Source: a virus. Taken from it: a stretch of 64,000 nucleotides of DNA. The stretch is from the UHGV virus genome UHGV-1550212. One strand, given 5' to 3'. The notes beneath the pieces were generated by a model. That model saw nothing but the letters and a program-made list of their open reading frames with translations. It was not told the DNA's origin and did no database searches. Each line of letters begins with the position of its first letter. Position 1 is the stretch's first letter. Position numbers and translations under genes: made by a program. Shown here in pieces: positions 3,021 to 62,291 of the stretch.

Positions 3021-3051
3021 GTCTGTAAATTGAGATGTTTGTATATGTATA

Positions 3052-3059
3052 TTGTACAA
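3052..3059 (-). promoter_or_regulatory. TTGTACAA palindromic promoter-associated motif about 30 nt upstream of topoisomerase start
   Basis: same palindrome followed by AT-rich tract recurs upstream of many minus-strand genes. Confidence 0.4.
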
Positions 3060-3207
3060 CAAGAATGCAAAACTTGCACTGAAAATATACACATTTTCAC
3101 ATAACAGCAAGCATAATGCCAAGCAGCACTGCAAGACATATCAAACCTATGCCAAGAACAATAAAGTCCAGCATAGAATACGTGTCATTAGACTGTTTCA
3201 TAAGTAG

Positions 3208-5473: not shown

Positions 5474-5505
5474 ATTGCAGAGGTTTAGTATATTTGACTC
5501 TATAT

Positions 5506-5513
5506 TATTTATA
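5506..5513 (-). promoter_or_regulatory. T4-type late-promoter-like box (TATAAATA on minus strand)
   Basis: plus strand reads tatttata; embedded in a ~40-nt block shared with the region upstream of gene 19686..20558. Confidence 0.35.
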
Positions 5514-5677
5514 GATTAATACTACACACTTGCAGATTTTGCACTTAATTGATAAATAATTTGTAAACATTTTCACAAACTTTTAACAGCTCTTTCGCTT
5601 ATGAAAACTACTCAACTCTGGTTTGAACGCCAGCAGTCAATCGCGGGGGGGCTCTTCGTGCTCCTGATTACATAGAT

Positions 5678-9400: not shown

Positions 9401-9653
9401 CATGATACTTTTCATTGTAGATGTCAAGTACGCCATAAACATCTTTCAATGGTCGAATGCTTTCTGATGAGCCGAATGATGGCTTCAAAATTGAATTGCA
9501 TACACGTTCAACGGTGCCACGCATAAACTTGACATCACTTCGCTTGTCACTGATAGACATAAATGCATCAATGACAGACTTGATGGTGTCATCTGCAGCT
9601 TCATTAACAAAGCCTACTGGTCGACCGCCAAACTTGTTTGTTTGTGTTGTCAT
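6447..9653 (-). CDS. large hypothetical protein (1068 aa), candidate virion/internal head protein
   Basis: ORF track; N-terminus MTTQTNKFGGRPVGFVNE-AADD resembles a cleavable targeting peptide; second FVNE and a YINE inside. Confidence 0.5.
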   Translation of the reverse strand: MTTQTNKFGGRPVGFVNEAADDTIKSVIDAFMSISDKRSDVKFMRGTVERVCNSILKPSFGSSESIRPLKDVYGVLDIYNEKYHVMHPKMKSIFMDIMKQAYAAADIVCESATAELYAGTWNNASKQERKAMMNALAKAQPNLRYDTAVVDKLFDELLGKDADAVMDAIGMHLDESVESSWNAWPLNVRKQIIAEVAPHMLNQQANIYESPYSNLPEDTALAVRSYIEQHCICESASYNLTSFVHAIAQIEPDNYWRSKHGVVEQCAGKEFADMLLQWSEDKIAEQWQVMSHECRKRLCEIFNVMYINEAISNPAGCSYAQAWWDNDATPAIDRMNVYNRSGAGIASNPDSILLDKMWVDLTDGQRSCITSYLREQHVLDEGLIKFLIGAVTFRWIWKKLANKYRDKVLKLLGLSQPEVTKYGNLDLDDMPSNLRGKVESILGDYAKNVNESADDKELQHVIAYLNTAFVNEAAGDKDSVIQEKSKGVWGIIGKNGEFWPQDYDSYDAALAALRAYHANAHVHEGKIGVNELRKEQIKDVVLPATGKWWDAATKAERKETLDKSGLGSWFAEKSWSEVGALNQLSIAWTAYALGKIAQLDEGKFDKSEAKKHADNIKAIAKKAGAKMEIRKSVSDPHKSYVLYKFSSYNSDAMKEWLSLGPGYGIAAGPMPGGEFHCSIDMSLFNDAGIAVDESLSADGKIAYSTIGVAFPVSSIKAICSWLAYDMTQNQSNACIRGEVLQLVSSIGFDCRSIMQPSALYPCGTPNLDLPLQQAWIPAISIKNDIAVLLTYANDSKQLIVCHDGDWFVIVDTADIARVLDTINTTSLYIAQDTMPLQMPAMKRQVVSTVGMATIIQICKRFAGRIDDDAHGGVFEATQTFEAEMLPSFVKNIVAAPDAAEFLKNTRKVALAPNTQYAYAIDVNGNRLWLAIDGRWWTTSDPAVVALILANTQDIEAVKAAKKSVEQFTQQQIMQALADMSATLTNVRYAVAAGRCRDITVIAKDVAADKDVEVQLTAGVDVPVLAFKDEVSPIVTVRFMYDGKAYEMMPTAELLHACFMFVDNIIALF

Positions 9654-9766: not shown

Positions 9767-12700
9767 TCAATTACATGCTGAATGTCCGCAGTTGGTGCAT
9801 CGAACACAGCCATCAAACTTGACCATGTCACCGCCGCATTCAGGACACTTTGCATACATCTTTGAGCCATCTTGAATATGCAGTTTCAATGCGCGCCCAA
9901 TTGCTTTGCAGAATGTTCCGACAGATGCAAAGCTTTTTGCAGTTTGGTCGACAATTTCGCCAAGGTCAATGCCATTGCGAAGCATCGTTGAGTACAGTCG
10001 AGTAATTGTTTGCTGCTCGTCTGAACCAAGACGTTCTGAGATATTATCATAGTGCTGCAAGAATGACAAATTATCACCAAGCTTGTAGTGCTTCTTATCA
10101 GTCTTTGTGATTGTCGTTTGTTCAATGCCTTGCAACTTGTCGAATTCATCTTTGTCAAGTTCAAATGCAAAGATTTCATAAGGTCGACCGTCATCACAGC
10201 CTACAAGAATACACCACTTGCGCTTATACACTGACACGCAATACACTGCAGCAGGCAATACTGGTTTTCGTTTTGAGCGATGACCAGATTGCAAGATGTG
10301 CGACTTGTCTTTTGACTGCTTGTCATCTTTTACGAGAACACCTGCACGTGAGCCATCTCGATAAATTGTGCAGCCTTTGCAGCCAGATTTCCATGCAGTC
10401 AGATAAATTTCACGAACAAGCTCTTTTGTTGCAGAGTTTGGAATGTTGACCGTTACAGAAATTGACGAGTCAATGTATTTTTGCAATGCACCTTGCAATT
10501 TCACCTTGCCAATCCAGTCAACATCTTCAGTAGTTGCCTTGTAGTATGGTGATTGAATAAGCAATTCATCAATGACTGCTTGCGGAGCATTTGACAACCA
10601 AGCTTTGATGCGAGACATTTCTGCTTCTGACCATTCAATGCCAGTATCTTTGACAAGAGTAAATTTGCCATCGCCAAGCTGCACTCGTTTACAAATCCAC
10701 TGCATCAACGGATAATGAACTACAGCGTATTCAATGAACTTGTCACCAGTAGTCTCATCAATGAAGTTGATGTCGGCCTCATTATCAACTGCAGTTGGCT
10801 TACGACGACGTTTATGTAGTGGCATAAATACGGGCTCAATACCAGACGTTGTCTGAGTCATCAAAGCTGTAGTGCCTGTTGGTGCAATTGTGGTCGTGTT
10901 AATGTTTCGACGGCCAAATTGCTGATAAGTTTTGATGTGCTCATCATCAATCAGTTCAGATAGCATACGCTGGATGAACTTTGATTGCACATCTGTGTCA
11001 TAGTCAAATATTGCAAATGAGCCACGAATCTTTGCCAAGTCAATTGACGCTTCATAAGTCGCCTTTACAAGCCATTGTTGCATAGTGACTGCGAAGTCAA
11101 TTGACTCCTGCGAGCCATAACGCAAGCCAAGCATCGCCATTGCATCGCCAAGCGCAAGGAAGCCCATGCCATATCGACGAGTGTTTGTCAGTTTATCATA
11201 AACTTTGTGCCACAAGTCAAGTTCAGTCTTTTTGATGTCAAAGTCTTCTTTATCTGACCGAACCTTTGCAATGATTCGTTGCACTGCTTCAATTTCAAGC
11301 TGCACAAGGTCATCCATGATGACTGCACAGTCATATGTATCTTTGTAGAATGTCTCAAAGTCAAATGATGCATCAGCAGTCCAAGGATTAAGCACATATG
11401 CAGTCAAATTGCGATGCGACAAAATGCAGCTTGCATATGCAGCGAGAGGCTGTTCACCGCAATTTAGTGTATTGACTACTTGCTTGTCATTGACAGCAAT
11501 AAAGAAATTGTGGAAGTCTTCTACTGTGCCATTGTACACATCTGCTTTGTTCATGTGACGTGTTGCAACGACTTTGACAATTGCATCACCAGTAGTGTCA
11601 ATGTCTGCATATTTGCTGCAGTCACCTAACGCTGCGCAAGCATCACAGCAATATGCTTGTTCACGATTGTCATAAGAAACTTCGAATTCTTTACCACAGC
11701 ACTCGCATTGTTTGATAACTGTGTTTCGTTCTGTTTTTACAAGCTCGTCAGTCTTCAATGCAATTGATAGCTTATCTGCGCTTGGCATATCAATTGCCCA
11801 CAATGAGTCATTTGTTGCAAGGTCAATTGCATTCTTGAAATCGCCATTAGCAAGCCTGAACTCATGATTTGCTGTGCAATTGATGACATGGCCGTCATCA
11901 AGCACAATTTGAATGATTTGCGCATTATGTGCAGTCAATCTGGGTCGACGCATTGTGCGCACAACGAGCTTGCCATTAGAGTCAAGACAATATACTGGAA
12001 TGTCTTCACCACTATCAGCAAGCTCTTTGAATGTCTTCAAACCTGAGCCATCAGCAACAAGTACTTTTGTGTCACCTGTGAAGCATGGATTTGTTGAGCG
12101 CTCTTCATACATTTTGCCATATGCTTTCGAGTTCGACTCTTCCATGATACGGTCCCAGAAGAACACGCCGGGTTCTGCAGATGCCCATACGTTATCAACA
12201 ATTTTGTCAAACAATGCTTTTGCATCTGATGTCTTATGCAGCTCTTGGCCATTAGAGCCACGCCAAACATGCTCAAACTGTTGTTCTGCAAGCACTGCAC
12301 GCATAAATGCATCAGTAAGCTTGATTGAAATGTTTGCGCCTGTGATTTTCGTCAAGTCCTTTTTTGCATCAATGAACTTATCTGCGTCAGGATGCTCAAT
12401 TGACAATGACAACATCAATGCGCCACGCCTGCCATTTTGTGCAACTTCTTTTGTTGATGTTGAAAAACGTTCCATAAATGACACTACACCAGAAGTTGTA
12501 ATAGCACTGTTATGCACTTCTACGTCTTCTGGACGAATGTGCGACAAATCATGACCAACGCCACCACGACGCTTCATCAACTGAACTTGCTCTTCATCTG
12601 TTTTGAAGATGCCGCCATATGAATCTGCGTCATTGCCAATTACATAGCAATTTGACATTGACGTGTAACCGCCAAGACCAATACCAGCCATTGGAGAACC

Positions 12701-12988
12701 ACCAAGCACAAACCGCTTAAAAGGCTCAAGTAAATATGCAAGTCGTTCTTTTGACAATACACGTTTGCCTGTCTGTTCTTCAAATTGTGATTCGATGCGG
12801 TCAAATTCATTGACCCAGCGCTCATGCATATCAGACAATGAGTGTTCATACAAATTGTCTTTGTCATGATGCAAGTATTTTGACATGCATATGTCAGCAG
12901 CCATTGAATCGCCTGTAAATTCATGCGTCAGTGTAGTGTGCACTTCAGCATATTCAGGCGACCCAATTTGAATGGGATGTTTTGTCAT
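9767..12988 (-). CDS. nrdJ: class II (adenosylcobalamin-type) ribonucleotide reductase with intein and C-terminal zinc ribbon
   Basis: active-site motif STNP/CGEQPL interrupted by intein; C-terminal CPECGG...CVRCTNCGHSAC zinc-ribbon tail; ATG at 12988 (track start 13048 is TTG). Confidence 0.75.
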   Translation of the reverse strand: MTKHPIQIGSPEYAEVHTTLTHEFTGDSMAADICMSKYLHHDKDNLYEHSLSDMHERWVNEFDRIESQFEEQTGKRVLSKERLAYLLEPFKRFVLGGSPMAGIGLGGYTSMSNCYVIGNDADSYGGIFKTDEEQVQLMKRRGGVGHDLSHIRPEDVEVHNSAITTSGVVSFMERFSTSTKEVAQNGRRGALMLSLSIEHPDADKFIDAKKDLTKITGANISIKLTDAFMRAVLAEQQFEHVWRGSNGQELHKTSDAKALFDKIVDNVWASAEPGVFFWDRIMEESNSKAYGKMYEERSTNPCFTGDTKVLVADGSGLKTFKELADSGEDIPVYCLDSNGKLVVRTMRRPRLTAHNAQIIQIVLDDGHVINCTANHEFRLANGDFKNAIDLATNDSLWAIDMPSADKLSIALKTDELVKTERNTVIKQCECCGKEFEVSYDNREQAYCCDACAALGDCSKYADIDTTGDAIVKVVATRHMNKADVYNGTVEDFHNFFIAVNDKQVVNTLNCGEQPLAAYASCILSHRNLTAYVLNPWTADASFDFETFYKDTYDCAVIMDDLVQLEIEAVQRIIAKVRSDKEDFDIKKTELDLWHKVYDKLTNTRRYGMGFLALGDAMAMLGLRYGSQESIDFAVTMQQWLVKATYEASIDLAKIRGSFAIFDYDTDVQSKFIQRMLSELIDDEHIKTYQQFGRRNINTTTIAPTGTTALMTQTTSGIEPVFMPLHKRRRKPTAVDNEADINFIDETTGDKFIEYAVVHYPLMQWICKRVQLGDGKFTLVKDTGIEWSEAEMSRIKAWLSNAPQAVIDELLIQSPYYKATTEDVDWIGKVKLQGALQKYIDSSISVTVNIPNSATKELVREIYLTAWKSGCKGCTIYRDGSRAGVLVKDDKQSKDKSHILQSGHRSKRKPVLPAAVYCVSVYKRKWCILVGCDDGRPYEIFAFELDKDEFDKLQGIEQTTITKTDKKHYKLGDNLSFLQHYDNISERLGSDEQQTITRLYSTMLRNGIDLGEIVDQTAKSFASVGTFCKAIGRALKLHIQDGSKMYAKCPECGGDMVKFDGCVRCTNCGHSACN
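11462..12085 (-). mobile_element. intein (~208 aa) inside nrdJ at the NPC|GE active-site motif
   Basis: begins CFTGDTKVLV (block A), TANHEF (block B), VYNGTVEDFHNFFIAVND (block F), ends ...NTLN followed by Cys+1; Cys-rich CECCGK...CCDAC insert instead of a LAGLIDADG domain. Confidence 0.65.
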
Positions 12989-13030
12989 TGTAACAGTGCA
13001 TTTAAGTGTTTTAACTGTTTTATGTATAAA

Positions 13031-13038
13031 TTGTACAA
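13031..13038 (-). promoter_or_regulatory. TTGTACAA promoter-associated motif upstream of nrdJ
   Basis: about 45 nt upstream of ATG 12988, followed by TTTATACAT. Confidence 0.4.
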
Positions 13039-13058
13039 CAATGGGCAAAATTTTGCAT

Positions 13059-13104
13059 CAACTCAAAACAGCCAAGCAATTCATTGCTTGGCTGTTTTGA
13101 GTTG
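13059..13104. terminator. 46-bp perfect palindrome (22-bp arms, 2-nt spacer), likely terminator
   Basis: caactcaaaacagccaagcaat tc attgcttggctgttttgagttg. Confidence 0.5.
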
Positions 13105-13296: not shown

Positions 13297-13752
13297 TTAT
13301 TGTGCTTTACCAGTGTAATAAGTGATTGCATCAATGTAAGGCTGTTCTTTAGACATTAGCCAATCAATGCCAAATACTGTATCTTGACGAAATCTTCGTT
13401 GTGCAATCATTTGAACTTCGATTGGCATATCTACGTCCTTGCCAAATCTGATTGTATTTGCAAGTTCTGTGATTGCATATCTGAGAATTGTGTCAGTACT
13501 CATTGTTAATGTGCTTTCCGGCAATTGCCAGTAACGTTCTTGGAATGCTCGATTTGCTGAGTAAGTCCAAAGTTCAAGTCTTGCATTTCTGCAATCATAT
13601 GAAACAATCAGACTTAATCCTTTTGTCCAGCAATGTGCTATCTTAATGATAGGGTTGTTGTCATTGATTGATGACATTGCTTGCAATCTTTCGAAATCTT
13701 TAACATATCTGTTATCATTCGAAAGCTGTTCCATTATTTCACCGTAAGTCAT
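13297..13752 (-). CDS. hypothetical protein (151 aa)
   Basis: ORF track; ATG preceded by conserved leader aacctctactaca shared with genes starting at 20558 and 62168. Confidence 0.5.
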   Translation of the reverse strand: MTYGEIMEQLSNDNRYVKDFERLQAMSSINDNNPIIKIAHCWTKGLSLIVSYDCRNARLELWTYSANRAFQERYWQLPESTLTMSTDTILRYAITELANTIRFGKDVDMPIEVQMIAQRRFRQDTVFGIDWLMSKEQPYIDAITYYTGKAQ

Positions 13753-13941
13753 TGTAGTAGAGGTTAAAATATATTAATATATAATAATTATACTACAAAG
13801 TTGTCAGATTTGCACCAGAATGTATAACAAGTTTGCATAAAAGTTTTACATAAAATGCAAACAAAACAAGCAGACTGCAATTGCAGCCTGCTTGCGCCAA
13901 AACAGAAAAAGATGATAACTTACTAACCCAAAAACCTAACT

Positions 13942-16044: not shown

Positions 16045-16294
16045 TTCGTTCACCCATGACTTTTGTAATACCTGCAGTTGCAAACATGCCTGCGACTGCG
16101 CCAATTATGCCTGCAACTGCGCCAAGTTGTTCAGTTGTTTTGCCAGTTGCTACGACTTCCCATATGATTGCAAAACAAACAACGAGTAATATAAAGATGC
16201 CTATAAAAGTCACAGCTACGACAAAAAATGATTTGACTGACACACCAGTGTCATTCGTCACTAAGTTGCGCATTGTAAATTTGTTGTTATTCAT
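15983..16294 (-). CDS. holin-like small membrane protein (103 aa)
   Basis: two hydrophobic helices (FFVVAVTFIGIFILLVVCFAII; LGAVAGIIGAVAGMFATAGI) and charged C-terminus; overlaps start of the M15 peptidase gene. Confidence 0.4.
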   Translation of the reverse strand: MNNNKFTMRNLVTNDTGVSVKSFFVVAVTFIGIFILLVVCFAIIWEVVATGKTTEQLGAVAGIIGAVAGMFATAGITKVMGERNECKCKELDRQHEQQQQQHN

Positions 16295-16398
16295 AGGGAT
16301 GGCGAACTGTACACATTGTGCATATTGTACACACTATATATTGTATGTGTTTGTATATGTATTTTAACAGGCATTAGCAAACAATACAAAAACAACAA

Positions 16399-18111: not shown

Positions 18112-18137
18112 TGTGTAGTGTTGCTTATATGAAAATA

Positions 18138-18145
18138 TTGTACAA
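18138..18145 (-). promoter_or_regulatory. TTGTACAA promoter-associated motif upstream of nucleotidyltransferase-kinase gene
   Basis: lies in a ~40-nt block nearly identical to 25369..25408. Confidence 0.4.
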
Positions 18146-18182
18146 CATGCATTGCAAATTTGCAATGATACAACATGCATTG

Positions 18183-18440
18183 CTATTTTGCAAGATGACA
18201 ATGCTTACGCCATACTGCAATTTCAACATCTGTAGCAAAATCAAAGTGCAAGCCATGCAATTGTTTCATGTCATATTGACGTCTTGCAATATACTTGTTG
18301 CCAACTCGCTCAACAACAGAACCAACTTCTACTACATTTTTAGAATGTCGTGGCTCATGTAATGGCACTCTGAATATGTATCTGCCATCTAATGTTGACA
18401 TTATATCACCATTGTCAATTATGCCTGTTTGCCTGCTCAT
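18183..18440 (-). CDS. hypothetical protein (85 aa)
   Basis: ORF track. Confidence 0.4.
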   Translation of the reverse strand: MSRQTGIIDNGDIMSTLDGRYIFRVPLHEPRHSKNVVEVGSVVERVGNKYIARRQYDMKQLHGLHFDFATDVEIAVWRKHCHLAK

Positions 18441-19685: not shown

Positions 19686-20558
19686 TCAAGCCTGACTACT
19701 TTTGTTGATTACGAGATACTTGTATCGTTCTTTGATTGTGATGTTCTTTGATTTTGCAGCCTCGATTTCTTTGCGTTCCTTGGAGGAATAGTTGAACTTG
19801 ATATAGTCGGAGAACAATTCGGGCTTATCTGCTACTTCATTGTTCTTGACTTCTTTTACAAGAGTTTGCTGAAACTCATTGATTGTAGTGAAACCGAGGA
19901 ATGACTGGAACTTGTTAAGCGGAAACAGCTTATCTGTGTTGTCCTCGAATGTCGGGAATTCGTCAGAATACGTAATTTCAATTTGGTCTACAAAATATCT
20001 GAGTTTTTCCCAGGGTTCCTTGCCAATGAGGAGAATGTTCTGATGGTCGAGTTTTTCCTCGAACATTTCCAGGAGACATTCGTATGATTTTACGAGACGA
20101 ACTCCAGGATATGTAATTGATGCAATTGAACGAGGTTTGTGAGTCGTCTTAACTTCTTTATTGTACGTTTCCTCGTCAATGCAATAGATGTATCGCTTAA
20201 CCTTGTCGTATTCTTTAGGAAGATAGTTGTTGTCAAGGAATTGCTTGTCAACTACAATGAAACTGAAAGGATAGAGTTCATTGAATCGTTGGCGAAGCTG
20301 TTCTGTTGCAAGGAAGAAATGCGAGCCATCTTTTGCTGCAAATTCCATATTTGAATTGCATCCTGCATATGCAATGTATCTGTTTCGCTTCCATTTGAGG
20401 AATCGACTTACCAGGTTCTTTTCGAAGATGTCCTTGTATTTGAAGTTAGTGTCCCAGTACTCCTTAACAATTCCATCTTGCATTTTTCTTGACAATTTTG
20501 AATTGTCTACCGGCCTATCAGTAAAAACTGAAGGTTTGTTTGCGTTGTATAATCCCAT
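19686..20558 (-). CDS. hypothetical protein (290 aa) with atypical C-ending codon usage
   Basis: ORF track; TATAAATA late-promoter-like box and conserved leader upstream; codon usage resembles the capsid gene rather than neighbours. Confidence 0.5.
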   Translation of the reverse strand: MGLYNANKPSVFTDRPVDNSKLSRKMQDGIVKEYWDTNFKYKDIFEKNLVSRFLKWKRNRYIAYAGCNSNMEFAAKDGSHFFLATEQLRQRFNELYPFSFIVVDKQFLDNNYLPKEYDKVKRYIYCIDEETYNKEVKTTHKPRSIASITYPGVRLVKSYECLLEMFEEKLDHQNILLIGKEPWEKLRYFVDQIEITYSDEFPTFEDNTDKLFPLNKFQSFLGFTTINEFQQTLVKEVKNNEVADKPELFSDYIKFNYSSKERKEIEAAKSKNITIKERYKYLVINKSSQA

Positions 20559-20653
20559 TGTAGTAGAGGTTTGTTAATTTATTATTTATAGATATATAAT
20601 ACTACGACAATGCAAATTTTGCACTGTCGTAGCATAAAAGTTTACACATTTTT

Positions 20654-21730: not shown

Positions 21731-22411
21731 TCAAAGAAACTTGAGTTTTGACAGCATTTCAGTGTCTTGTTCAGTGTTGATGCAGAGCTCTTGCATAACA
21801 TCAAGCAATGCAGACCATAATTGCTCATATGATTTGCCGTTGTTCATAACAACAGCGTCAACAAACAGCTCATCTATGTGTTGTTCACTTGAATGACTGA
21901 TGTTTTGCTTGACATCATCATTGACAATTTTAATGAGTTTGAAACCTCTTGAACGCAATGCGGTCGCTTCGTTTGGATATCGACAATCGCCAACACAAAT
22001 AAGTGCTTCATTATGACAATTGTCAAGTCGATACAGCAAACTGTTTACAAAGAAGTCTTCACCATACAGTTTCTTGAGCGCATCTGAAACATCAAGATGC
22101 ACATTGCGAATCGATGAACCTGCAAACTCTACAAAGTGTTTCTGTTTGAATGCATTGTTATGCAAGTCTTGCAAATTGTAGCCCAGTGTACTTGCAATAA
22201 ATGCTTTCAGTGGCTTTGCAAAGCACTCATATGCAAGATTGCAGCCACATGGCCAGTATGGATTTGCTTCAATTTGCTGCAAAGTTGATGTGTAAATGCC
22301 ATCAATTACAGTGAACTTGCATTTAGTCATGACTCGAATCATCGCCCAAGCCAAATCTTTGCCTACGCCTGCATGACCAACAAGCGCAATTTTTGTTATG
22401 TCATCATTCAT
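21731..22411 (-). CDS. P-loop nucleotide kinase-like protein (dNMP kinase-like)
   Basis: Walker A-like KIALVGHAGVGKD near N-terminus. Confidence 0.45.
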   Translation of the reverse strand: MNDDITKIALVGHAGVGKDLAWAMIRVMTKCKFTVIDGIYTSTLQQIEANPYWPCGCNLAYECFAKPLKAFIASTLGYNLQDLHNNAFKQKHFVEFAGSSIRNVHLDVSDALKKLYGEDFFVNSLLYRLDNCHNEALICVGDCRYPNEATALRSRGFKLIKIVNDDVKQNISHSSEQHIDELFVDAVVMNNGKSYEQLWSALLDVMQELCINTEQDTEMLSKLKFL

Positions 22412-22793
22412 TGCACCACTGTTTAAGAGTCACAAAATTGTTGAAGTCTGCATAAAAGTCATCACCACCGTTAAGCATTGCGACATTCTCAAGTTCATTG
22501 AGAATGATTTGCTTATCAATGACTATTGCAAGAGCGTCAAAGTCTTCTTTTGATTGCAAGTTAAGTAGCACAGGATGACCTTTGAGTCTTGTAGTTAATG
22601 TTGCTGGCAGTCTATGCACAGACTTCTTTTTCTTTGACTGCGTAGGATGTTTTGAGCGCTTTCTTGTAGCAGTCAGCTGAATATCATAATCAATTTCAAG
22701 CAAACCTGCATCTTGCATTACAAAATTGAGATTAACATGCACAGGATACTTTTGCTGAATGTCTATGAATTCTTGTAATTTGTCGTTTATCAT
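22404..22793 (-). CDS. hypothetical protein
   Basis: ORF track 22404..22886; probable start at in-frame ATG 22793 just downstream of a TTGTACCA motif and hairpin. Confidence 0.4.
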   Translation of the reverse strand: MINDKLQEFIDIQQKYPVHVNLNFVMQDAGLLEIDYDIQLTATRKRSKHPTQSKKKKSVHRLPATLTTRLKGHPVLLNLQSKEDFDALAIVIDKQIILNELENVAMLNGGDDFYADFNNFVTLKQWCNE

Positions 22794-22851
22794 TTGAAAT
22801 GCATTTGTATATGATAATTGTACCACGTATGCATCAACTTTGCACACAAAA

Positions 22852-22879
22852 CAAGACCAGCTCAATTGAGCTGGTCTTG
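22852..22879 (-). terminator. terminator hairpin (caagaccagctcaattgagctggtcttg)
   Basis: perfect palindrome; identical core to 35654..35681. Confidence 0.55.
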
Positions 22880-22897
22880 CGGTCATATGTAGACTTC

Positions 22898-23474: not shown

Positions 23475-25232
23475 CTACTCTGCTTTTGTTGCTTGCATCA
23501 GTTCAGCAAAGCTTACAGTGTAAGCATCTTCACCAACAGTCACATATGCAGCATCAACATTTGAGTCATTGCCTGTGTATGCAACCAAGGTGCCTGCTGG
23601 AATTTCTACACCGTCAATTGTTAGCATCGAATTGACAAGCTTGTATGTCTTGTTATCTTCGAAGTTCTCATTGACATATGCAGCAGCAATCATTGTTGAA
23701 CGTTTACGAGATTCATTGACAAAGCTTGCGCCAACAAGTTCTGACAGCTTCTTCTTTGTTGCTGCAGAGCATTTGTCATATGCAATGTCAATTGCGAGGT
23801 CTACATCACCAAGTTCCTTTGCAATGAGTTCATCAATCTGAGACAGCTTCTTGTCATCTTTGACAGCGACAAAATTCATTGCAAACTTGCGAGCGTTGTC
23901 TGACAATGATTCATCAATGTTCCACTGTTTCATCAATGTCTGCTTCAACACCTTGTCAAGTTCTGACCAGTCCTTATCTGCAAGAGTAGTTGCATCAAAG
24001 TCTTCATTGCTGAACTGCTTCAGCACTTTGACTTTGTCATCATGTGACAATGCTGACCACTTGTTTGCAGCGTCTTCAGCAGATTCAAGCAGAGGCTTGA
24101 TTGCATCTTTGAGTTCTTGCGGCCAAGTTTCAGGCGCTTTGAGCAGCATCTCAGATGAGTTGTACTCAAGCATGTCTGTCATGATTGCAAGCTTGACATT
24201 GTTAGCTTTCTCTTCAGGTGACAGAGCTTTGAATTTTTCAGCCCAGTCTTCAGATTCAGTCACGATTGATGCAGGCTTTGCAAAACCAGCAACAAAAACG
24301 AGCTTGTACATGATGTTCGTCATGAATGAGCAAGCTGCATCGATATCTGACTGAGTTGCTGCAGATTGAGCATCACGAATGTTGAGCAATGCCTGACGAA
24401 GAGACATAATGCCTACAACAGGGTCAGACCATGTCAATACAACTGAACTATCGATTGTGATGCCCTTGTCAAATCGCATATTTTCTGCAATGCGGTCAGC
24501 AAGTTCAGGCAGTTCAGTGTAGTACTGCTCAAGCGCTGCATGTGCAGCAGGAATTGAAACTTTTGCAGCATCAAATGCGTTGTTGATGTGCATAACATGC
24601 GCAGTTTGAATTGACTGCATCAACATCGACACTACTGCAGATTCTGTTGCAACATCATCTGTTGCAGCTTCATTAACAAATGACGCCATTGCATTTTGCA
24701 GCATGTATTGATGGTCTCGTACTGGCAACTCAACAATTTCAAAGCCTTCAAGAGACTTTGGCGAATCAGTTGCTGAACCTGCTTCAAGACACTTCTTTGA
24801 TGCATTGTCAATGACAAACCACATCTTTTGTGCTTTGAGTGCAATGTAAGTCTTGTCTTTTGATTGCTGAACAGTCATGTTGTCAAGAGCCAACGCACTG
24901 ATTGGCAAATTCTTGACTGCTGACTTGTCAAGTGCTTCATTGACTGCTACATTGTCATCACTCATTAACTGAGTATTTGCAGCAAATGTTGCAGAATCAA
25001 TGCTAAGCTCTTTGCCATCAGGCATAGAGAACTTAACTGCATCTGCAACATCAAGCACTTGCACCATGGCGCCTGCTTCGACTTTGTCATCACCAACAGC
25101 GAACTCAGTTACAACCTGATATGCCTTGTTAGCTTCAACAGTTTCAACAGACTCCATAATGAACTTTGCTGTACTGCAAGAGATTTTGTGCTTTTTCATG
25201 TTCATGTATGAATTTGAGTGTTTGTTGTTCAT
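23475..25232 (-). CDS. hypothetical acidic protein (585 aa), candidate head/internal protein
   Basis: ORF track; motifs SFVNE-A, SFVNE-S, YVNE-N, AVNE-A. Confidence 0.5.
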   Translation of the reverse strand: MNNKHSNSYMNMKKHKISCSTAKFIMESVETVEANKAYQVVTEFAVGDDKVEAGAMVQVLDVADAVKFSMPDGKELSIDSATFAANTQLMSDDNVAVNEALDKSAVKNLPISALALDNMTVQQSKDKTYIALKAQKMWFVIDNASKKCLEAGSATDSPKSLEGFEIVELPVRDHQYMLQNAMASFVNEAATDDVATESAVVSMLMQSIQTAHVMHINNAFDAAKVSIPAAHAALEQYYTELPELADRIAENMRFDKGITIDSSVVLTWSDPVVGIMSLRQALLNIRDAQSAATQSDIDAACSFMTNIMYKLVFVAGFAKPASIVTESEDWAEKFKALSPEEKANNVKLAIMTDMLEYNSSEMLLKAPETWPQELKDAIKPLLESAEDAANKWSALSHDDKVKVLKQFSNEDFDATTLADKDWSELDKVLKQTLMKQWNIDESLSDNARKFAMNFVAVKDDKKLSQIDELIAKELGDVDLAIDIAYDKCSAATKKKLSELVGASFVNESRKRSTMIAAAYVNENFEDNKTYKLVNSMLTIDGVEIPAGTLVAYTGNDSNVDAAYVTVGEDAYTVSFAELMQATKAE

Positions 25233-25368
25233 ATGATATGATATATATCAAGTGCAGCAATTGAACAGATTGCAAAAACAATGCTCAGACTGTAAAGTCT
25301 GAGCATTGAACGACTAAATTGTACATCTTCCACAATGATATAGAATCATTGTTAATATTGTATTGATA

Positions 25369-25453
25369 TTGTACAACATGCATTGCATATTTGCAATGAT
25401 ACAACATGCAAAATGCACTTGCACTTTGATGCAAAGTACTGCGTACACAACAT
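25369..25453 (-). promoter_or_regulatory. intergenic regulatory cassette: TTGTACAA motif plus 29-nt element duplicated at 26556..26584
   Basis: 25425..25453 tttgatgcaaagtactgcgtacacaacat is identical to 26556..26584; 25369..25408 nearly identical to 18138..18178. Confidence 0.45.
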
Positions 25454-25482: not shown

Positions 25483-26505
25483 TCATTGTTGTTTATGCCA
25501 GCCATATGATGCCTGACCAGCATCATACACTTCTACGAAGCCATGGTCGTACATAAAATCTTCATTACGAGTGCCCTTGCCCCCATTAGTGCCAAGAATA
25601 CGGTCTGCGCCATGCATAAGCAGCATATTATTTGTGACATGTTGCTTTGTCAGCATATTGAACCAGTGTTTGCTATATGACAAGCCAAGACCATCAAAGC
25701 CCAGCTTTGTGTACACACCACCGTCAAACTTGCTTAAATCACAATATGATAACACAGATTCAGGGTCATATGTCTTGATAAAGTGCTTAAAGATTCGTTC
25801 AGCACCACCAACAACTTTGGTTGCTGCACAAAGACGTAGCAATTCATATTGATAGCGCTTATTGTATCGTGGACGACCAAATGTCATAAGTTGATGAATG
25901 ACATAACCACCAAGCAACTCAAGTGGATGACCTTCAATCAACGCAAGATTGATAAAATTGCCTGAGCACTTGCCTTGCAAATGATGTTCAATCAAAAATT
26001 GATTTGCAGTATACTTGTCAATTTCAACAACTTTAAGCTTGCGAGCATATACAATCTTTGATTTGTCTACGATTTGATGCTTGATGTGATTGATAACTTT
26101 CTTGGCGTCATCCCAGTCCCACACATGAATGCAATGAAAGCCTGCTGATTTGGCGATGTCTGTTTTCTTTGCATGAATATCACAAGGCAAATGCGAATCT
26201 TTTGCATCATGCATAAACAGATGTTCAAATGAATGTGTGCTGTTATGTGAAAATGCAGGATTGATGTTAATGACAATATTGTCATGTCGAAAATCGAAGA
26301 CTTCATCGCCAATGACAAAGTTGCGCTCAAAATTTATACCGACATGTTTGAGTAACACTTGATGCCACACATCTTTATAGGCTGATTCAAGCTTGCTTAG
26401 CTCATCACAGTTTGCAATGTTTTTGTAACGTTGAATAGCAGCATCAAAGTCAAGATTGACTTCAGCGTAGTCTGCATTTTTATCGTAGTGAAATTTTGAG
26501 CTCAT
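25483..26505 (-). CDS. Vsr/DUF559-like nuclease-domain protein (paralog family; N-terminal nuclease module, extra C-terminal domain)
   Basis: NIVININPAFSHNS and GFHCIHVWDWDD match the family module; C-terminal GFVEVYDAGQ tail; ATG at 26505. Confidence 0.5.
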   Translation of the reverse strand: MSSKFHYDKNADYAEVNLDFDAAIQRYKNIANCDELSKLESAYKDVWHQVLLKHVGINFERNFVIGDEVFDFRHDNIVININPAFSHNSTHSFEHLFMHDAKDSHLPCDIHAKKTDIAKSAGFHCIHVWDWDDAKKVINHIKHQIVDKSKIVYARKLKVVEIDKYTANQFLIEHHLQGKCSGNFINLALIEGHPLELLGGYVIHQLMTFGRPRYNKRYQYELLRLCAATKVVGGAERIFKHFIKTYDPESVLSYCDLSKFDGGVYTKLGFDGLGLSYSKHWFNMLTKQHVTNNMLLMHGADRILGTNGGKGTRNEDFMYDHGFVEVYDAGQASYGWHKQQ

Positions 26506-26528
26506 GTGTATAATTTTGTATGAGATTA

Positions 26529-26536
26529 TTGTACAA
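26529..26536 (-). promoter_or_regulatory. TTGTACAA promoter-associated motif
   Basis: about 20 nt upstream of ATG 26505. Confidence 0.4.
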
Positions 26537-26612
26537 CATGCAAATGCATGTTGCATTTGATGCAAAGTACTGCGTACACAACATAAAGTACAAGTTTGTC
26601 TTTTGATAGACT

Positions 26613-27674
26613 TTACTTTGTATTGCTACGCGTCATTGTTAAATGACCGCAATCATACACATCAACTTCTGTTTTGCCAAGCATGCATGTATGACAATTT
26701 ATTTTGAAATCTGCTGCAGCGTAATCAGGATAGTTTAGTGGAGATTCTTTTGACAAATCAATTTCAATTGTGTCAGTAGTTTTAAGCTGTTCAGTACCTG
26801 CAATGATATCTGCAATAAGATTGATAACTTCTTCTTGTGAATCCCAATCAAACACAGTTATGCAACGATAGCCTACATCAAGTGCAAGTTTTGTTTTATT
26901 GTAATGGTATTGCGCACCAATAACATTGTTGTCTTTTGCTCGACCAGTTAAATATGCAAAACTAACAGTGCAGTTGTGCGTAACTGTTGGACAAATTTCT
27001 ATAAGTAACTTTGCAGGCTCATACTGCAAATCATATGTTTGATTATTGATGTTAAACTCGTACTGTGTATCAATTGCCAACTGTCGTAATAACGCATCAT
27101 GCCACATCATATTACATTTAGAAATTGTTTTGGATGACAATCTGCATTGAGGCAATTGACATGGCCAATCTACGCCGTACATTTGTTGTGTTGTTTGACG
27201 CATTTTGTTAACATCACCAAAATGATTGCCATATCGATGCTCTTTGGTTTTAAGCGACTGCTCAATATTGACATTGCCTACACAACCATAACGTTCAAGT
27301 TTTGTTGCAGCAGTTTTGCTAACATCACCATGTCCATTACCAAATTTGGCGACTTTAGTTGCAAGTATTTTATGACTTGGGCCAAATGCATTGCCATACA
27401 ATTCTTGTTTAGTCGCAAGCATTTTGTCGATATTACAACCAGCGCCATAAGTGTTATGCATAGTTTGCATACGCTGTCGAATAAATTTTGGCACAGATAA
27501 AGGACTTTCTACACCATATTTGCGTAAGCAACTGATTTTGCATGCGTACTTTTGCTTGATGACAGAATGTGCATTTCGACGTCCTATGTAAGTATTTTCT
27601 GATGTAGCAGCAAGCTCTGCATCTCTAAGAACTTCAAGTGCAGCAATTCGTGCTTCAATTTCTTCAGATGTCAT
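26613..27674 (-). CDS. RYG-repeat / Vsr-DUF559-like nuclease (putative free-standing homing endonuclease)
   Basis: seven ~21-aa tandem repeats each with R/K-Y-G (KYG, TYG, LYG, KFG, RYG, RYG, MYG); C-terminal LLIEICPTVTHNCT...GYRCITVFDWDS...VDVYDCGH. Confidence 0.55.
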   Translation of the reverse strand: MTSEEIEARIAALEVLRDAELAATSENTYIGRRNAHSVIKQKYACKISCLRKYGVESPLSVPKFIRQRMQTMHNTYGAGCNIDKMLATKQELYGNAFGPSHKILATKVAKFGNGHGDVSKTAATKLERYGCVGNVNIEQSLKTKEHRYGNHFGDVNKMRQTTQQMYGVDWPCQLPQCRLSSKTISKCNMMWHDALLRQLAIDTQYEFNINNQTYDLQYEPAKLLIEICPTVTHNCTVSFAYLTGRAKDNNVIGAQYHYNKTKLALDVGYRCITVFDWDSQEEVINLIADIIAGTEQLKTTDTIEIDLSKESPLNYPDYAAADFKINCHTCMLGKTEVDVYDCGHLTMTRSNTK

Positions 27675-27695
27675 TTTTTAATAGCATATTGATAA

Positions 27696-27703
27696 TTGTA
27701 CAA
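27696..27703 (-). promoter_or_regulatory. TTGTACAA promoter-associated motif
   Basis: 22 nt upstream of ATG 27674. Confidence 0.4.
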
Positions 27704-27760
27704 CATACAAATGCGTTTTGCATTTTTGATGTAGCAATTGCTTGCACAGTTTGCAAAAAA

Positions 27761-29737: not shown

Positions 29738-29825
29738 GATTGAATTTGTTTGTTATTGAAAGTGAAACATATATTTCTGTATAATATGTATAGAACTACT
29801 GACATTGATTGAATTGTGAAAATGG

Positions 29826-31217: not shown

Positions 31218-31333
31218 AATTATCTGTGTTTAATTTATGTATACTATTGTATTGTAGCATTGACTACTTTGCGCATAACAAAAAAGAAGCCAAGTCATTT
31301 GACTTGGCTTTGAAATGTGTACTTGCAGTTGTA

Positions 31334-35547: not shown

Positions 35548-35653
35548 GTTCGTTATCGTATTTGTTGTAAATTGTGAAATGTTGCTTTGTTTGATTATAA
35601 CTTGATATATGTATGTATATGATGACATCAAACATGTTGTTGACCAAAATCAA

Positions 35654-48405: not shown

Positions 48406-49604
48406 TAACTGTCATACGACCAGTGACCACAGTCATACACTGGCACAAATCCAGTGTCAAGCATTTCTTGCTCAATAAAGCCATCATCAAGCAAATGTTC
48501 ACCTGACTTCGTATTGACCCAATGCTTCTTAATTGTGCATTCATCAACCACAAAGGGATTAAGTGCATTGTCAGTGCAATCAATGAACACATTATTCAAA
48601 TGCGCGTCAATGACATGCAGCACAATTTCTGGGTTGTGCCAATCAAATATCATAAGTGGCGTGTAGCCACATACAATTGCAAGTTGTTGCTTCCACCAAT
48701 GATAGTTTGGCTGTTTTGCTTCTGCGGCATTTCGTTTAAAGCCATACACGCTATTATGAGTATGCGTCGGGTTAACGTCAATTAGCAGATTGCCATAATA
48801 CAGGTCATATGATGTTATGCCAACATCATGTTCAAACTCAAAATGCACACCAAGATGTTCTTCAATGTATGATTGCCACCATCTGTTTGGCGCAGATATG
48901 ATTTGCCCATTTGCTTGCATACATTTATTTGTCATGCAAAACCATGGCACACCGTAACGTTCCATACAGGTTTTTGAAATTGCAGCAAGCCATTCATCTT
49001 TGTCTCTATGCGGCCATGCATAACCATAACGCAGACGACATGTTTGTTGAGCTTTAGCAACGATTGGCGCTAAACGTTCACCGTATATTTCACGTTTAGT
49101 TGCGATGGCTTTGCGTGGATTAGTCCATCCAGCATCACCCCATCGCTCAAGCTTCGTTTGCTGAGATTTTTCAACAATCAGTTCAAGATTCTCACCATAT
49201 TTTTGACGACGAGTTTGCATTGCTGCAACATAATCTGTAATGCATCTATGGCCATACAAACGTTCTTTTGTCGCACTATGTGCTTTATCGCCATATGAAC
49301 TGCCGTAGCGTGCAACTTTAGTGGCAATTGTTTGCTTGATGTTGCCTGCTTTAGAACCATAACGAGCTTCTTTAGTTGCTACGCATTTTTGTTTGACTTC
49401 TGCTCTGTTCCAATTATGCTCAACGCCATGTTTACGAAGATGGCCAATTTTCATGTTGTACACGTTTTTGATATGACCATGAGATGTCTTACGTGGTGCA
49501 TATCGTACAAATGGTGTTTCTGCAAGCAACTTATCTCGTTCAGCTTCAAGCTCTTTAATTCGAGCTTCAAGAGCTTCACCAGTCAAATGCTCTACATGTT
49601 TCAT
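48405..49604 (-). CDS. RYG-repeat / Vsr-DUF559-like nuclease (putative homing endonuclease)
   Basis: N-terminal ALEARIKELEAERD, tandem RYG repeats, LLIDVNPTHTHNS...GYTPLMIFDWHN...FVPVYDCGH. Confidence 0.55.
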   Translation of the reverse strand: MKHVEHLTGEALEARIKELEAERDKLLAETPFVRYAPRKTSHGHIKNVYNMKIGHLRKHGVEHNWNRAEVKQKCVATKEARYGSKAGNIKQTIATKVARYGSSYGDKAHSATKERLYGHRCITDYVAAMQTRRQKYGENLELIVEKSQQTKLERWGDAGWTNPRKAIATKREIYGERLAPIVAKAQQTCRLRYGYAWPHRDKDEWLAAISKTCMERYGVPWFCMTNKCMQANGQIISAPNRWWQSYIEEHLGVHFEFEHDVGITSYDLYYGNLLIDVNPTHTHNSVYGFKRNAAEAKQPNYHWWKQQLAIVCGYTPLMIFDWHNPEIVLHVIDAHLNNVFIDCTDNALNPFVVDECTIKKHWVNTKSGEHLLDDGFIEQEMLDTGFVPVYDCGHWSYDS

Positions 49605-50089
49605 TCGTGTTTGCCAGTTTGAAATAACGAATCAATTGGGATGTGAATACCAGGTTTGGATTGAATGTTCCATCCGCGCGCCAAACCATTAAGTACGCAG
49701 CTCGTAAGGTAAGAAAACGCGTTTTGAGTTACTGTTGGGTCAAACATTTGCCACTTTGACGCCAAAATTAACATGGCTTCTGCTGCGACATCTGCTTGTA
49801 AGTCTTTGTCCCTGTAGTATAAACGTCTCTGCACATGTTTGATAAGCAACTCAAACATGTGTATAAGTTTATTTGACAGCTGTCCAGATACTTTGCATGC
49901 GCATATTTCTGCACAAAGTTCTTTGCTGTTGATGTAATAGTTTGATGGCTGACCTCGCTTCTTTGTGTTTGCAGCTTCTTCACGAAGTTGGTCTTCAAGT
50001 TGTGTCAACATGTCATCATCTGACACGTATTGAATATGCTTGTCTTCTGGTAGTTTAGATTCTATTGGTTGTAAGTTTTGCAGTGGCAT
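49601..50089 (-). CDS. late transcription sigma factor (T4 gp55-like), putative
   Basis: YYINSKELCAEI...AMLILASKWQ...NAFSYLTSCVLNGLARGW parallels gp55 conserved regions; ATG at 50089 downstream of TTGTACAA motif at 50119. Confidence 0.5.
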   Translation of the reverse strand: MPLQNLQPIESKLPEDKHIQYVSDDDMLTQLEDQLREEAANTKKRGQPSNYYINSKELCAEICACKVSGQLSNKLIHMFELLIKHVQRRLYYRDKDLQADVAAEAMLILASKWQMFDPTVTQNAFSYLTSCVLNGLARGWNIQSKPGIHIPIDSLFQTGKHE

Positions 50090-50153
50090 AGCAGTGAGCA
50101 TTAAAATTCCTATATAAATTGTACAACGCTTTGTGCACATTTGCAATCATAAA

Positions 50154-54430: not shown

Positions 54431-54571
54431 AAGTTGTTTATTTTTGATTAAATTGTACTACACATGTTGCAATTTTTGCAATACACATGTTAAACCAAAA
54501 TGCAGCAGCAGATGTTCTGCTGCTGCATCGGCAGGTATCTTCACAATTGTTTGAGTTGATTGCAATGCGAT

Positions 54572-55399: not shown

Positions 55400-55467
55400 C
55401 TTGTATCTATGTTGTTGATTTTCAATTTAATATATTGAACAACATTTGTTGACATTTTGCAACATTG

Positions 55468-58244: not shown

Positions 58245-58655
58245 TTAGAATAGAGATATTGTACAACAATTTGATTCAGGTTGCCATTCTACAATATGCG
58301 CATCAAAGTGTTTGTTAAGCCAATGTGCAAGTATGTGTCTATGACAAAATGCAGATAGTCTGCACCAACATAACAATACAATGTCTCGTTCGCCTGCAAG
58401 AATCTTTATGCGATGCAGCATCAAACTTATCTGTGACAATGCAGCGTCAAGTTTTGCTGCATATTGCTCTGCATATTGTGCATTGTCAAGCAAGCCTGCT
58501 TTATGCAAACGAACAAGTGACATGTAATCAGGCATGACGTCAGTCCATGTAAAATCTGCTATGAAGCCCTTAGGCTTTGTTGCAGACACTTGAACAAGAA
58601 ATGCGTTATCAGGCAGATGCCTGCATGCATAATATGAAGTTAAGATTCTTGTCAT
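58245..58655 (-). CDS. hypothetical protein (136 aa)
   Basis: ORF track. Confidence 0.4.
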   Translation of the reverse strand: MTRILTSYYACRHLPDNAFLVQVSATKPKGFIADFTWTDVMPDYMSLVRLHKAGLLDNAQYAEQYAAKLDAALSQISLMLHRIKILAGERDIVLLCWCRLSAFCHRHILAHWLNKHFDAHIVEWQPESNCCTISLF

Positions 58656-60307: not shown

Positions 60308-60519
60308 CTTATTTATGATTTGATGTCTTGTTATATTATTATATGTTGATATTGTACAACGCTAAGTGTCATTTTGCACTATCGCCGCCAATTTTTATTG
60401 ATGGCGTTGCAAACAATGCAAGCAAACACCAGCCACTTTTAGTAACTGCACAAGCAACTGCTATTGCAGCAAAGAAGCTTGCATAAATGATTGCTGCAGC
60501 AAGCCAACTTGTTTTATCG

Positions 60520-62168: not shown

Positions 62169-62291
62169 TGTAGTAGAGGTTTGTTGTGTTCTGTATATTA
62201 TGTTCGAATATATGAGGACATATATTATATATAGATATATTACAACACGCAAATCATTTTTGCACACTTTTATAAACCAAATTTCACAAAA

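Follow-up and report, generated by a model that had tools for sequence, protein, structure and literature searches.

A palindromic 8-mer, TTGTACAA, recurs in the 64,000-nt stretch of the UHGV virus genome UHGV-1550212 analyzed here (the window), and an earlier note on this DNA had proposed that it is either a class-specific early or middle promoter element or the binding site of a dimeric regulator. We find it probable that TTGTACAA(T) forms the -10 region in a family of promoters specific to the lineage of this T4-like human-gut phage, serving the pre-replicative programme. The -10 region proper would be TACAAT preceded by an invariant GTTG, and transcription would start a few bases downstream of TACAAT and proceed into the adjoining gene on the minus strand. 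The sequence comparisons described below establish the architecture of the element, its strand bias, its spacing, its restriction to a class of genes, and its conservation. Class-specific promoters are expected in a T4-like phage, and the existence of such a family is in itself ordinary; the twist is that this family is, by its sequence, unlike the normal promoters of the probable Bacteroidota host, despite translation signals of the Bacteroidota type.

Architecture and distribution of the element

The window was read on the minus strand, as nearly all long open reading frames (ORFs) lie there. Exact copies of TTGTACAA numbered 12, compared to 2.25 +/- 1.45 expected from dinucleotide-preserving shuffles, and none of 100 shuffles reached 12. 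Intergenic DNA makes up 8.1% of the window and holds nine of these copies (3052, 13031, 18138, 25369, 26529, 27696, 50119, 58259, and 60352). All eight of the exact sites listed previously are present among the nine; the copy at 25369 and three copies within ORFs (7723, 29289, and 34272) had not been listed. The one-mismatch variants that were also put forward proved to be a mixed set. Bare 8-mers with one mismatch are mostly noise (85 observed versus 59 expected). The variant at 54453, TAGTACAAT, has TTGCAA 18 nt upstream and becomes a perfect GTTGTACAAT in a relative with 95% protein identity. The variant at 16325 reads GTGTACAAT, lacks the TGCAA box, follows a terminator and a late-like ATACATATACAAAC element, and was set aside.

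Alignment of nine sites on the minus strand gave nTGCAA(a), 12 variable bases, (t)GTTG, TACAAT, and (a/t)T, that is, a directional element in which a -35-like box is separated by a 17-nt spacer from a -10-like hexamer, TACAAT. The AT-rich tract previously seen to follow the 8-mer was recovered with the consensus TACAAT(a/t)T..a.Ata.aa. In full, the element would read nTGCAAa, a 17-nt spacer ending in (t)GT(T/A)G, TA(C/T)(A/T)AT, and (A/T)T. The bipartite pattern with at most one mismatch had 11 matches, all on the minus strand, versus 0.25 expected. TGCA and TGCAA occur in the window at 4.7 and 6 times the expectation from base composition, respectively, and the spacing control kept the real abundance of TGCAA by counting this box followed by TA[CT][AT]AT at each spacing from 8 to 27 nt. 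At 17 nt, 11 such pairs were found compared to 0.63 expected, with no more than three at any other spacing, and the opposite strand had none at any spacing in the range. Matches to TGCAA-N17-TA[CT]AAT in the window were intergenic in nine of ten cases (p = 7.5e-9).

Weaker members were sought with a position weight matrix (PWM) and a relaxed pattern, which added sites at 55432 (TTGTTCAAT), 62235, 22817, 20594, 13785, 5514, and 54450. Second, half-strength units stand in tandem immediately upstream of the 18138 and 25369 sites (18163-18194 and 25394-25425). The window thus holds 18 units at 16 loci, all on the coding (minus) strand, with a spacer of 17 nt in 17 of the 18 and of 18 nt in the remaining one. 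The hexamers in the family are TACAAT, TATAAT, TATTAT, TATCAT, and TAATAT, with TTCAAT and TATTAA at one site each. By walking along a 175.6-kb IMG/VR relative, we obtained 129 kb of non-redundant lineage sequence, in which PWM scores of at least 20 were reached at 23 sites on the coding strand and at none on the opposite strand; 18 of the 23 fall within the 8.5% of this DNA that is non-coding (p = 1e-15).

The two blocks lie 17 +/- 1 nt apart and the hexamer conforms to TAnnnT, A being the second base and T the sixth, as in promoters of the sigma-70 type. The upstream box, nTGCAA(a), agrees with TTGACA at 3-4 of 6 positions, the first T being variable and CA standing in place of AC, and a scan with the generic sigma-70 consensus gave background levels in all three regions scanned. 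A sigma-54 reading of the TGCA-rich box (TGGCAC-N5-TTGCA) was considered and, on inspection, rejected: the GC-to-GC offset is 8-9 nt, not ~12 nt, and the start would precede TACAAT.

The perfect palindrome of the 8-mer and its intergenic enrichment could instead mark the operator of a dimeric repressor or activator, with its position reflecting regulation rather than the polymerase. We regard this as very improbable. The base before TTGTACAA is G and the base after it is T at nine of nine sites, and the symmetry cannot extend past 8 bp because of these flanks, as a palindrome would need A upstream. Many members read TAGTACAAT, TAGTATAAT, or TTGTTCAAT rather than TTGTACAA, the other half showing no matching change, and TAGTACAAT is the form found in the 57-63% relatives. 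An operator would be expected to keep its symmetry across sites and relatives and to have no set orientation; here the flanks are asymmetric, the box is broken, and the sites share a single orientation at a fixed 17 nt from an asymmetric TGCAA box. From these alignments the 8-bp palindrome is incidental, a by-product of TTG abutting TACAA, and the dimeric-regulator half of the earlier proposal finds no support for TTGTACAA. A separate dyad, TGCAAA(n0-5)TTTGCA, is nonetheless found at many of the same units, centred at about -28.5 over the -35 box and spacer, so that some dimeric protein may act there. Its mean best symmetry is 0.64 versus 0.47-0.49 for random and TGCAA-anchored controls (P < 1e-4), and the gap between its half-sites is variable; examples are TTGCAAATTTGCAA at 18138, a perfect 14 bp, and AAAGTGCAAATTTGCACTTT in flanking DNA. 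If any dimeric protein does act at these promoters, this dyad, and not TTGTACAA, is its likely site.

Probable transcription units and genes behind the element

From the end of the hexamer to the start codon there are 19-43 nt at most loci, with extremes of 16 nt and more than 130 nt. The earlier placement of 20-45 nt upstream of start codons is right as to minus-strand starts, with a measured range of 16-43 nt for the eight exact sites it listed. Five of the nine strong minus-strand intrinsic terminators (27761, 22851, 13866, 54499, and 50153) have a unit 5-50 nt downstream, and the layout of terminator, tandem promoters, and ORF also occurs in the relative (locus L133). Two units precede no ORF. 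One lies outside the window, directly upstream of a cluster of seven tRNAs (Gln, Pro, Leu, Ser, Glu, Thr, and Gly) located ~1.7-2.9 kb beyond window coordinate 1; beside this cluster, ARAGORN calls a doubtful permuted tmRNA. The other, at 25369, is followed ~60 nt later by a strong terminator. The RNA predicted between them folds into two hairpins (minimum free energy -30 kcal/mol, z = -5.5), and a tiny ORF, MILYHCGRCTI, lies within it. Rfam had no match anywhere in the window, this RNA included, which is by its sequence a candidate phage small RNA or a leader upstream of the gene at 23475-25232.

Since units stand before tRNAs and a short RNA, where there is no translation start, a transcription signal is favored over one acting at the level of translation. 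The opposing explanation, a signal in the 5' leader of the RNA such as a translational repressor site or a processing site, has in its favor the position of the motif 16-43 nt upstream of many start codons and the occurrence of a separate conserved leader, AAACCTCTAC(T/A)ACAATG, at some genes. It is scarcely credible, as the motif stands anywhere from 16 to more than 130 nt from the ATG but at a fixed distance from TGCAA, and sites directly follow intrinsic terminators and precede tRNA genes and the non-coding RNA unit.

Genes behind units in the window encode the topoisomerase II large subunit, ribonucleotide reductase, a nucleotidyltransferase fusion, two DUF7487/HNH-like nuclease paralogs, a gp55-like minimal sigma, both fragments of a split family-B DNA polymerase, and the products of several small-ORF operons (Table 1). 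In flanking DNA or in the 95% relative, units likewise precede genes for a topo IV-A-like protein, a gp32-like single-stranded-DNA-binding protein, and a fused Mre11/Rad50-like nuclease. The structural block from 28022 to 49604 (21.6 kb; capsid, tail sheath, prohead protease, portal, and neck) contains no unit at all, in keeping with the absence noted earlier before capsid, sheath, and portal genes. The suggestion of a class-specific early or middle promoter gains from each of these features: the motif is directional and confined to one strand, has a 17-nt spacing and conserved boxes, sits between terminators and starts, and goes with one class of genes. The family would then drive replication and recombination, nucleotide metabolism, tRNAs, small-ORF operons, and the gp55-like late sigma, which presumably switches RNA polymerase to a second box, TATAnATA, before the structural genes.

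Table 1. Coordinates of putative promoter units and associated features. Positions are those of the window unless a locus number (L) is given; (-), minus strand.
Feature	Position	Sequence	Context
Unit	3049..3080 (-)	AGTGCAAG-N-GTTGTACAATAT	30 nt before ATG (3020) of topoisomerase II large subunit; late-like TATACATA overlaps 3' end
Unit, GTAGTATTAA subtype	5514..5545 (-)	then CTATAAATA and conserved leader AAACCTCTGCAATATG	small gene 5219-5473
Unit	13028..13059 (-)	GTTGTACAAT	directly after terminator-like hairpin; 41 nt before ribonucleotide reductase (start 12988)
Unit, GTAGTATAAT subtype	13785..13816 (-)		50 nt past terminator 13895-13866; gene 13297-13752 with conserved leader
Tandem pair (site named in the earlier note)	18135..18194 (-)		25 nt before ATG (18111) of nucleotidyltransferase-fusion gene
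Main unit of pair	18135-18166 (-)	ATTGCAAATTTGCAATGCATGTTGTACAATAT	top PWM score
Upstream unit of pair	18163-18194 (-)	GTTGTATCAT	
Unit, GTAGTATTAT subtype	20594..20625 (-)	with CTATAAATAATA and conserved leader	before gene 19686-20558
Unit, one mismatch	22815..22846 (-)	GTGGTACAAT	5 nt past terminator 22880-22851; heads operon with dNMP kinase (21731-22411) and SIS-isomerase genes
Tandem units	25366..25425 (-)		main 25366-25397, upstream 25394-25425; near-identical to 18138 cassette (45 nt)
Unit	26526..26557 (-)		before HNH/homing-endonuclease-like gene 25483-26502
Unit	27693..27724 (-)		37 nt past strong terminator 27791-27761; 20 nt before DUF7487 gene 26613-27674
Unit	50116..50147 (-)		6 nt past terminator 50182-50153; 19 nt before gp55-like late-sigma gene
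Variant unit	54450..54482 (-)	TTGCAA, 18-nt spacer, GTAGTACAAT	18 nt past terminator 54529-54499; 21 nt before DNA polymerase fragment B (53138-54430)
Variant unit	55432..55463 (-)	GTTGTTCAAT	before gene 54572-55399; identical in 95% relative
Unit, -35 variant	58256..58287 (-)	ATGGCAA	28 nt before DNA polymerase fragment A (56724-58229); in last codons of upstream gene
Unit	60349..60380 (-)		43 nt before gene 59738-60307
Unit, GTTGTAATAT subtype	62235..62266 (-)	with CTATATATAATA and conserved leader	small-ORF operon starting 62168
8-mer inside ORF 6447-9653	7723-7730	TTGTACAA	no TGCAA box; chance copy outside the promoter system
8-mers inside ORFs	29289-29296; 34272-34279	TTGTACAA	rest of motif absent; look like chance
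Conserved leader	ATG 62168, 20558, 13752, 5473 (-); also L134, L164	AAACCTCTAC(T/A)ACA-ATG	
Dyad sites, window	18143-18166, 25374-25397, 20602-20625, 54458-54482 (-)		
Dyad sites, lineage loci	L124:7250-7275; L131:14670-14695		
tRNA cluster	L131:12401-13574		directly downstream of a unit
Predicted RNA, ~90 nt	25270..25362 (-)		25369 promoter to intrinsic terminator 25308-25279
Candidate late box	29785..29792 (-)	TATACATA	upstream of major capsid gene
Equivalent boxes	31236-31243; 35612-35619 (sheath); 42979-42986 (portal) (-)		
TATAnATA directly past TACAAT boxes	3044-3051, 13021-13028, 5506-5513, 20583-20590, 62226-62233 (-)		
gp55-like minimal late sigma gene	49601..50098 (-)		family unit upstream; presumed reader of TATAnATA
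Phage MA9V-1 element	L129, for example 5400-5480, 7960-8045, 10770-10860, 16250-16330, 27200-27295		
dCMP deaminase, thymidylate-synthase-like, two GT47-like glycosyltransferase, and dNMP kinase genes	L167:3554-4279, L167:5414-6970, L165:649-1881, L165:7715-8596; window 21731-22411		
DUF7487/homing-endonuclease-like paralogs	26613-27674, 48405-49604, 29826-31217, 25483-26502; L134:2653-3789; L166:14579-15946		

Several of the genes in question have features of their own. The gene behind the 60352 site was earlier called a SWIM protein; the unit before it is real, and its product has no Pfam match. The two polymerase fragments, each with its own promoter, lie ~2.3 kb apart on the minus strand, with a 114-aa ORF, a dUTPase-like gene, MazG, and a 275-aa ORF between them. 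This split is common to the distant relatives MA9V-1 and PTm1, and PTm1 annotates an intein-containing fragment. The ribonucleotide reductase gene (9767-12988, minus strand) is unusually long at 1073 aa, with a weak Pfam match to an intein-splicing domain, and may contain an intein. The called ORF at 22404-22886 (minus strand) has both a terminator (22880-22851) and a unit (22815-22846) within its first 25 codons, and its true start is probably the ATG near 22792.

Relatives, host signals, and the reading of the element

The capsid protein of this lineage is also encoded on a human-gut metagenome scaffold, and the 175.6-kb IMG/VR contig is the relative sharing 95% protein identity. Cultured relatives are distant (26-36% identity over a polymerase fragment) and infect Chryseobacterium, Tenacibaculum, and Sphingomonas (Sphingomonas phage PAU); megablast of 8.3 kb against cultured phages found no match, the relatives being recognizable at the protein level only. 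The 95% relative has units at equivalent positions, plus extra copies. In a comparison of nine orthologous pairs, 6 of 153 box positions and 26 of 99 spacer positions were found to differ (p = 3e-7). At the promoters of the gp55-like and topo IV-A-like genes, the spacer and upstream flank are fully replaced in the relative, and at both TGCAAA and GTTGTACAAT keep their register, with identity resuming exactly at GTTGTACAAT.

Such junctions are what recombination at the box would leave, and the units could be mobile cassettes, either homing-endonuclease targets or modules like the promoter-early stem-loops (PeSLs) described as recombination points in T4-like phages (PMC4122927), with conservation the outcome of gene shuffling and not of a temporal class. 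Composite layouts of terminator and promoter are common here, and a near-identical 45-nt cassette is found at 18138 and 25369. As in PeSLs, a hairpin terminator is followed by a conserved promoter, repeated over the genome, and there are two cases in which the replacement junction with a close relative lies at the conserved box (PMC4122927). PeSLs are, however, known from hyperplastic regions of enterobacterial and Vibrio T4-like phages and carry promoters of the host sigma-70 consensus (PMC4122927), whereas the cassettes here are unrelated in sequence and front core replication genes as well. Conserved core genes (polymerase, ribonucleotide reductase, topoisomerase, and gp32) have units, not just variable small ORFs, and recombination alone leaves the restriction to a gene class unexplained. 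Cassette mobility is improbable as the explanation of the family, and as PeSLs are themselves promoters, it would add to a promoter function.

Relatives with 57-63% identity have GTGCAAA-N12-tGTAGTACAATAT or GTGCAAA-N12-GTAGTACAAT in intergenic DNA on the coding strand before polymerase fragment A, the gene in the gp55-like position, and small genes; their head-fibre genes bear a late-like box instead. The box in these relatives is TAGTACAAT, in which the palindrome is broken and the other half uncompensated. Best conserved is the -10 block, GTnGTAYWAT, with the TGCAA box present in a subset. The motif is absent from a 37% relative and from the Chryseobacterium phage MA9V-1. Among 2.9 million viral contigs, GTGCAAA-N12-GTWGTACAAT has 14 exact matches, seven of them on the 175.6-kb relative. 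Five unrelated-looking IMG/VR contigs (L114, L119, L137, L138, and L142) share an identical consensus-matching TGTGCAAACGCAGAATTCATGTTGTACAATAA and have no other sites; they were treated as a single chance occurrence in a different lineage. The loose pattern TGCAA-N14-TTGTACAAT gave, among the matches listed in IMG/VR, single chance-level ones per contig.

The host is probably a member of the Bacteroidota, judged from translation signals. A Shine-Dalgarno (SD) core precedes 3 of 58 genes, compared to 2.9 expected, and adenine is enriched before starts (62% at -14, 74% at -13, and 52% at -12). Bacteroidetes lack SD sequences, and enrichment of A at -12/-13 is characteristic of the phylum (Baez et al., PMC6847099). 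A conserved leader, AAACCTCTACTACA-ATG, is found at four loci, in each case together with the GTAGTATWAT / GTTGTAATAT promoter subtype and small genes, and has A at -3, -6, -12, and -13, which are the four positive determinants of SD-less initiation in Bacteroidetes (PMC6847099).

The promoters of that phylum follow a different grammar. The primary sigma of Bacteroidetes recognizes TTTG/TAnnTTTG, in which T-12, A-11, T-8, T-7, T-6, and G-5 are nearly invariant, and promoters of the E. coli type are not expressed in these bacteria (PMC6847099). The element shares with the sigma-ABfr promoters (-33 TTTG / -7 TAnnTTTG) only T-12, A-11, and T-7, in a phage that has the SD-less, A-rich initiation of the phylum; A occupies -8, A or T -6, and T or A -5, so that T-8, T-6, and G-5 are lacking, and TTTG is replaced by TGCAAA. 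No -7 element of the TAHHTTTG form was found in the family. In the intergenic DNA of the window TAnnTTTG is not enriched (2 of 23 copies); over the 129 kb it is weakly so, with 7 non-coding copies compared to 2.4 expected, of which ~3 are plausible on inspection. At L131:14624-14773, three promoter units stand in tandem within a large intergenic region, and the middle one overlaps a perfect promoter of the Bacteroidota type, TTTG-N19-TAACTTTG, the only place where both grammars coincide.

We lean toward a mode of action like that of T4 middle promoters, in which the basal -10 would be read by host core polymerase with a sigma, and the TGCAAA box by a factor supplied by the phage, either an activator or sigma appropriator or a phage sigma. 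This mode is favored because the translation signals are of the Bacteroidota type and T-8, T-6, and G-5 are missing from the element. Middle genes of T4 serve replication, recombination, and nucleotide metabolism and include those for tRNAs and for the factors that turn on late transcription (PMC2988021), and the regulon here matches. Like T4, this phage is without its own RNA polymerase and has a gp55-like late sigma. The promoters are alike in being bipartite, with a good basal -10 (TAnnnT) and, in the place of the -35, a phage-specific box with a TGC core (wwwTGCTTtA in T4, nrTGCAAa here), TGCAA being different from the known -35/-33 consensus. They differ in that the MotA box has its centre at -30 and lies 12 +/- 1 bp from the -10, whereas TGCAAA lies at about -34 to -29, 15-17 bp from the hexamer, with an invariant GTnG beside the -10. 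Homologues of MotA and AsiA were also not detected among ~100 proteins, and the host sigma would be of the divergent Bacteroidota type.

A simpler explanation is that these are plain early promoters, read by the unmodified host primary-sigma holoenzyme from the onset of infection and conserved by selection for strength. Their classical -35, 17-nt spacer, and -10 with TA...T, the extra conserved block upstream of the -10, their place at the head of small-ORF operons, and their standing as the only abundant promoter-like motif in 129 kb all favor it, as does the failure to find a phage specificity factor in the ~100 proteins scanned. T4 early promoters (the 'uber' host sigma-70 type, UP/-35/TGn/-10), which are likewise conserved beyond the canonical hexamers, share the 17-nt spacer and occur in many copies before pre-replicative genes and small ORFs (PMC2988021). 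The extension in T4 is TGn at -15/-14, here GTnG at -16 to -13, and T4 early promoters fit the consensus of their host while these units do not fit that of the probable host phylum, whose primary sigma needs T-8, T-7, T-6, and G-5 (PMC6847099). The best-conserved -35 bases are, furthermore, TGCAA and not the TTG of TTGACA. In addition, the cultured phage MA9V-1 bears a different, host-like element before small genes, ending in TAAATTTA or TATATTTG. We consider plain early promoters the less likely reading, yet a serious rival.

The element of MA9V-1 recurs upstream of small hypothetical genes as TTTTCATATGTCG-N11-cTTAAATTTAtac (or TATATTTG). From its likeness to the Bacteroidota -7 box, it is probably the host-dependent early promoter of that phage. 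ATACATA-type boxes precede the structural genes of MA9V-1.

A number of points weigh against a promoter family that depends on a phage factor. We infer promoter function itself from the logic of the sequence, and the identity of the host from translation signals; the SIS/arabinose-5-phosphate-isomerase-like gene, searched against GTDB genomes, had scattered matches of ~30% identity (Brachyspira, Myxococcota, and others) and gave no clue to the host. The shuffles miss part of the TGCA richness of the genome, which the spacing and strand controls do capture. Several sites in the 57-63% relatives have a weak -35 box or none. The same family heads small-ORF operons that look early, and the scarcity of plausible host-type promoters in the 129 kb, ~3 in number, would fit reading by unmodified host polymerase. 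By Pfam and PHROGs, no MotA-, AsiA-, or RpoD-like protein or helix-turn-helix regulator beyond the gp55-like sigma was found among the ~100 proteins encoded in the window and in ~65 kb of further sequence from the lineage (~130 kb of ~175 kb), a scan in which divergent factors would often be undetectable by sequence.

SPO1 gp28 and phiEco32 gp36 are phage-encoded sigmas that read middle promoters. The present family resembles such promoters (see also PMC13401047, PMC12276001) in having nearly invariant, phage-specific boxes of the -35/-10 type in one temporal class. Minimal sigmas, in some cases RpoD-like ones, are reported from jumbo phages related to T4 (PMC7824862); here, a second sigma gene was not found in the ~130 kb examined. 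Less confidently than the likeness to T4 middle promoters, we propose that T4-like phages of gut Bacteroidota redirect the sigma-ABfr polymerase to TGCAAA-N17-TACAAT via an unrecognised phage factor, a tentative proposal. Sigma appropriation in the manner of MotA/AsiA, a phage sigma, or an injected protein would each be conceivable, and the TGCAAA.TTTGCA dyad may be where such a factor binds.

We found no account in the literature of TTGTACAA or TGCAAA-N17-TACAAT as a phage promoter, nor of promoters in T4-like phages of Bacteroidota. The present data give a transcription map of an uncultured gut phage lineage (~175 kb), with its pre-replicative units, terminators, probable late box, and candidate small RNA. 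If a phage factor does retarget the host polymerase, it would be the first such system described for Bacteroidota, an orthogonal, infection-specific transcription system from which orthogonal, infection-inducible promoters for engineering Bacteroides could follow.

The candidate late box and further features of the genome

The second box, TATAnATA (mostly TATACATA), has 10 minus-strand copies in the window, nine of them intergenic (p = 7.5e-9). By analogy with the T4 late promoter TATAAATA, which it resembles, it is a candidate promoter of the gp55 type. The TTGTACAAT family differs from a late promoter of the T4 type, which would be a lone AT-rich -10 without a -35 before structural genes, in having a -35 box and in being absent from structural genes. 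At five loci TATAnATA stands directly past a TACAAT box (Table 1), an arrangement that suggests dual early/late units.

The DUF7487/homing-endonuclease-like paralogs, some of which follow units, are numerous and scattered over the replication and structural modules alike. The tetranucleotide GATC is absent from the window, compared to ~181 copies expected from trinucleotide frequencies, CTAG occurs once compared to ~62 expected, and the frequency of CATG is 0.62 of that expected; this pattern looks like strong restriction avoidance. The lineage also encodes a dCMP deaminase, a thymidylate-synthase-like enzyme, two GT47-like glycosyltransferases, and a dNMP kinase, a gene set pointing to hypermodification, and possibly glycosylation, of pyrimidines in the DNA of the phage. 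Hypermodification of this kind could affect both promoter recognition and restriction avoidance.

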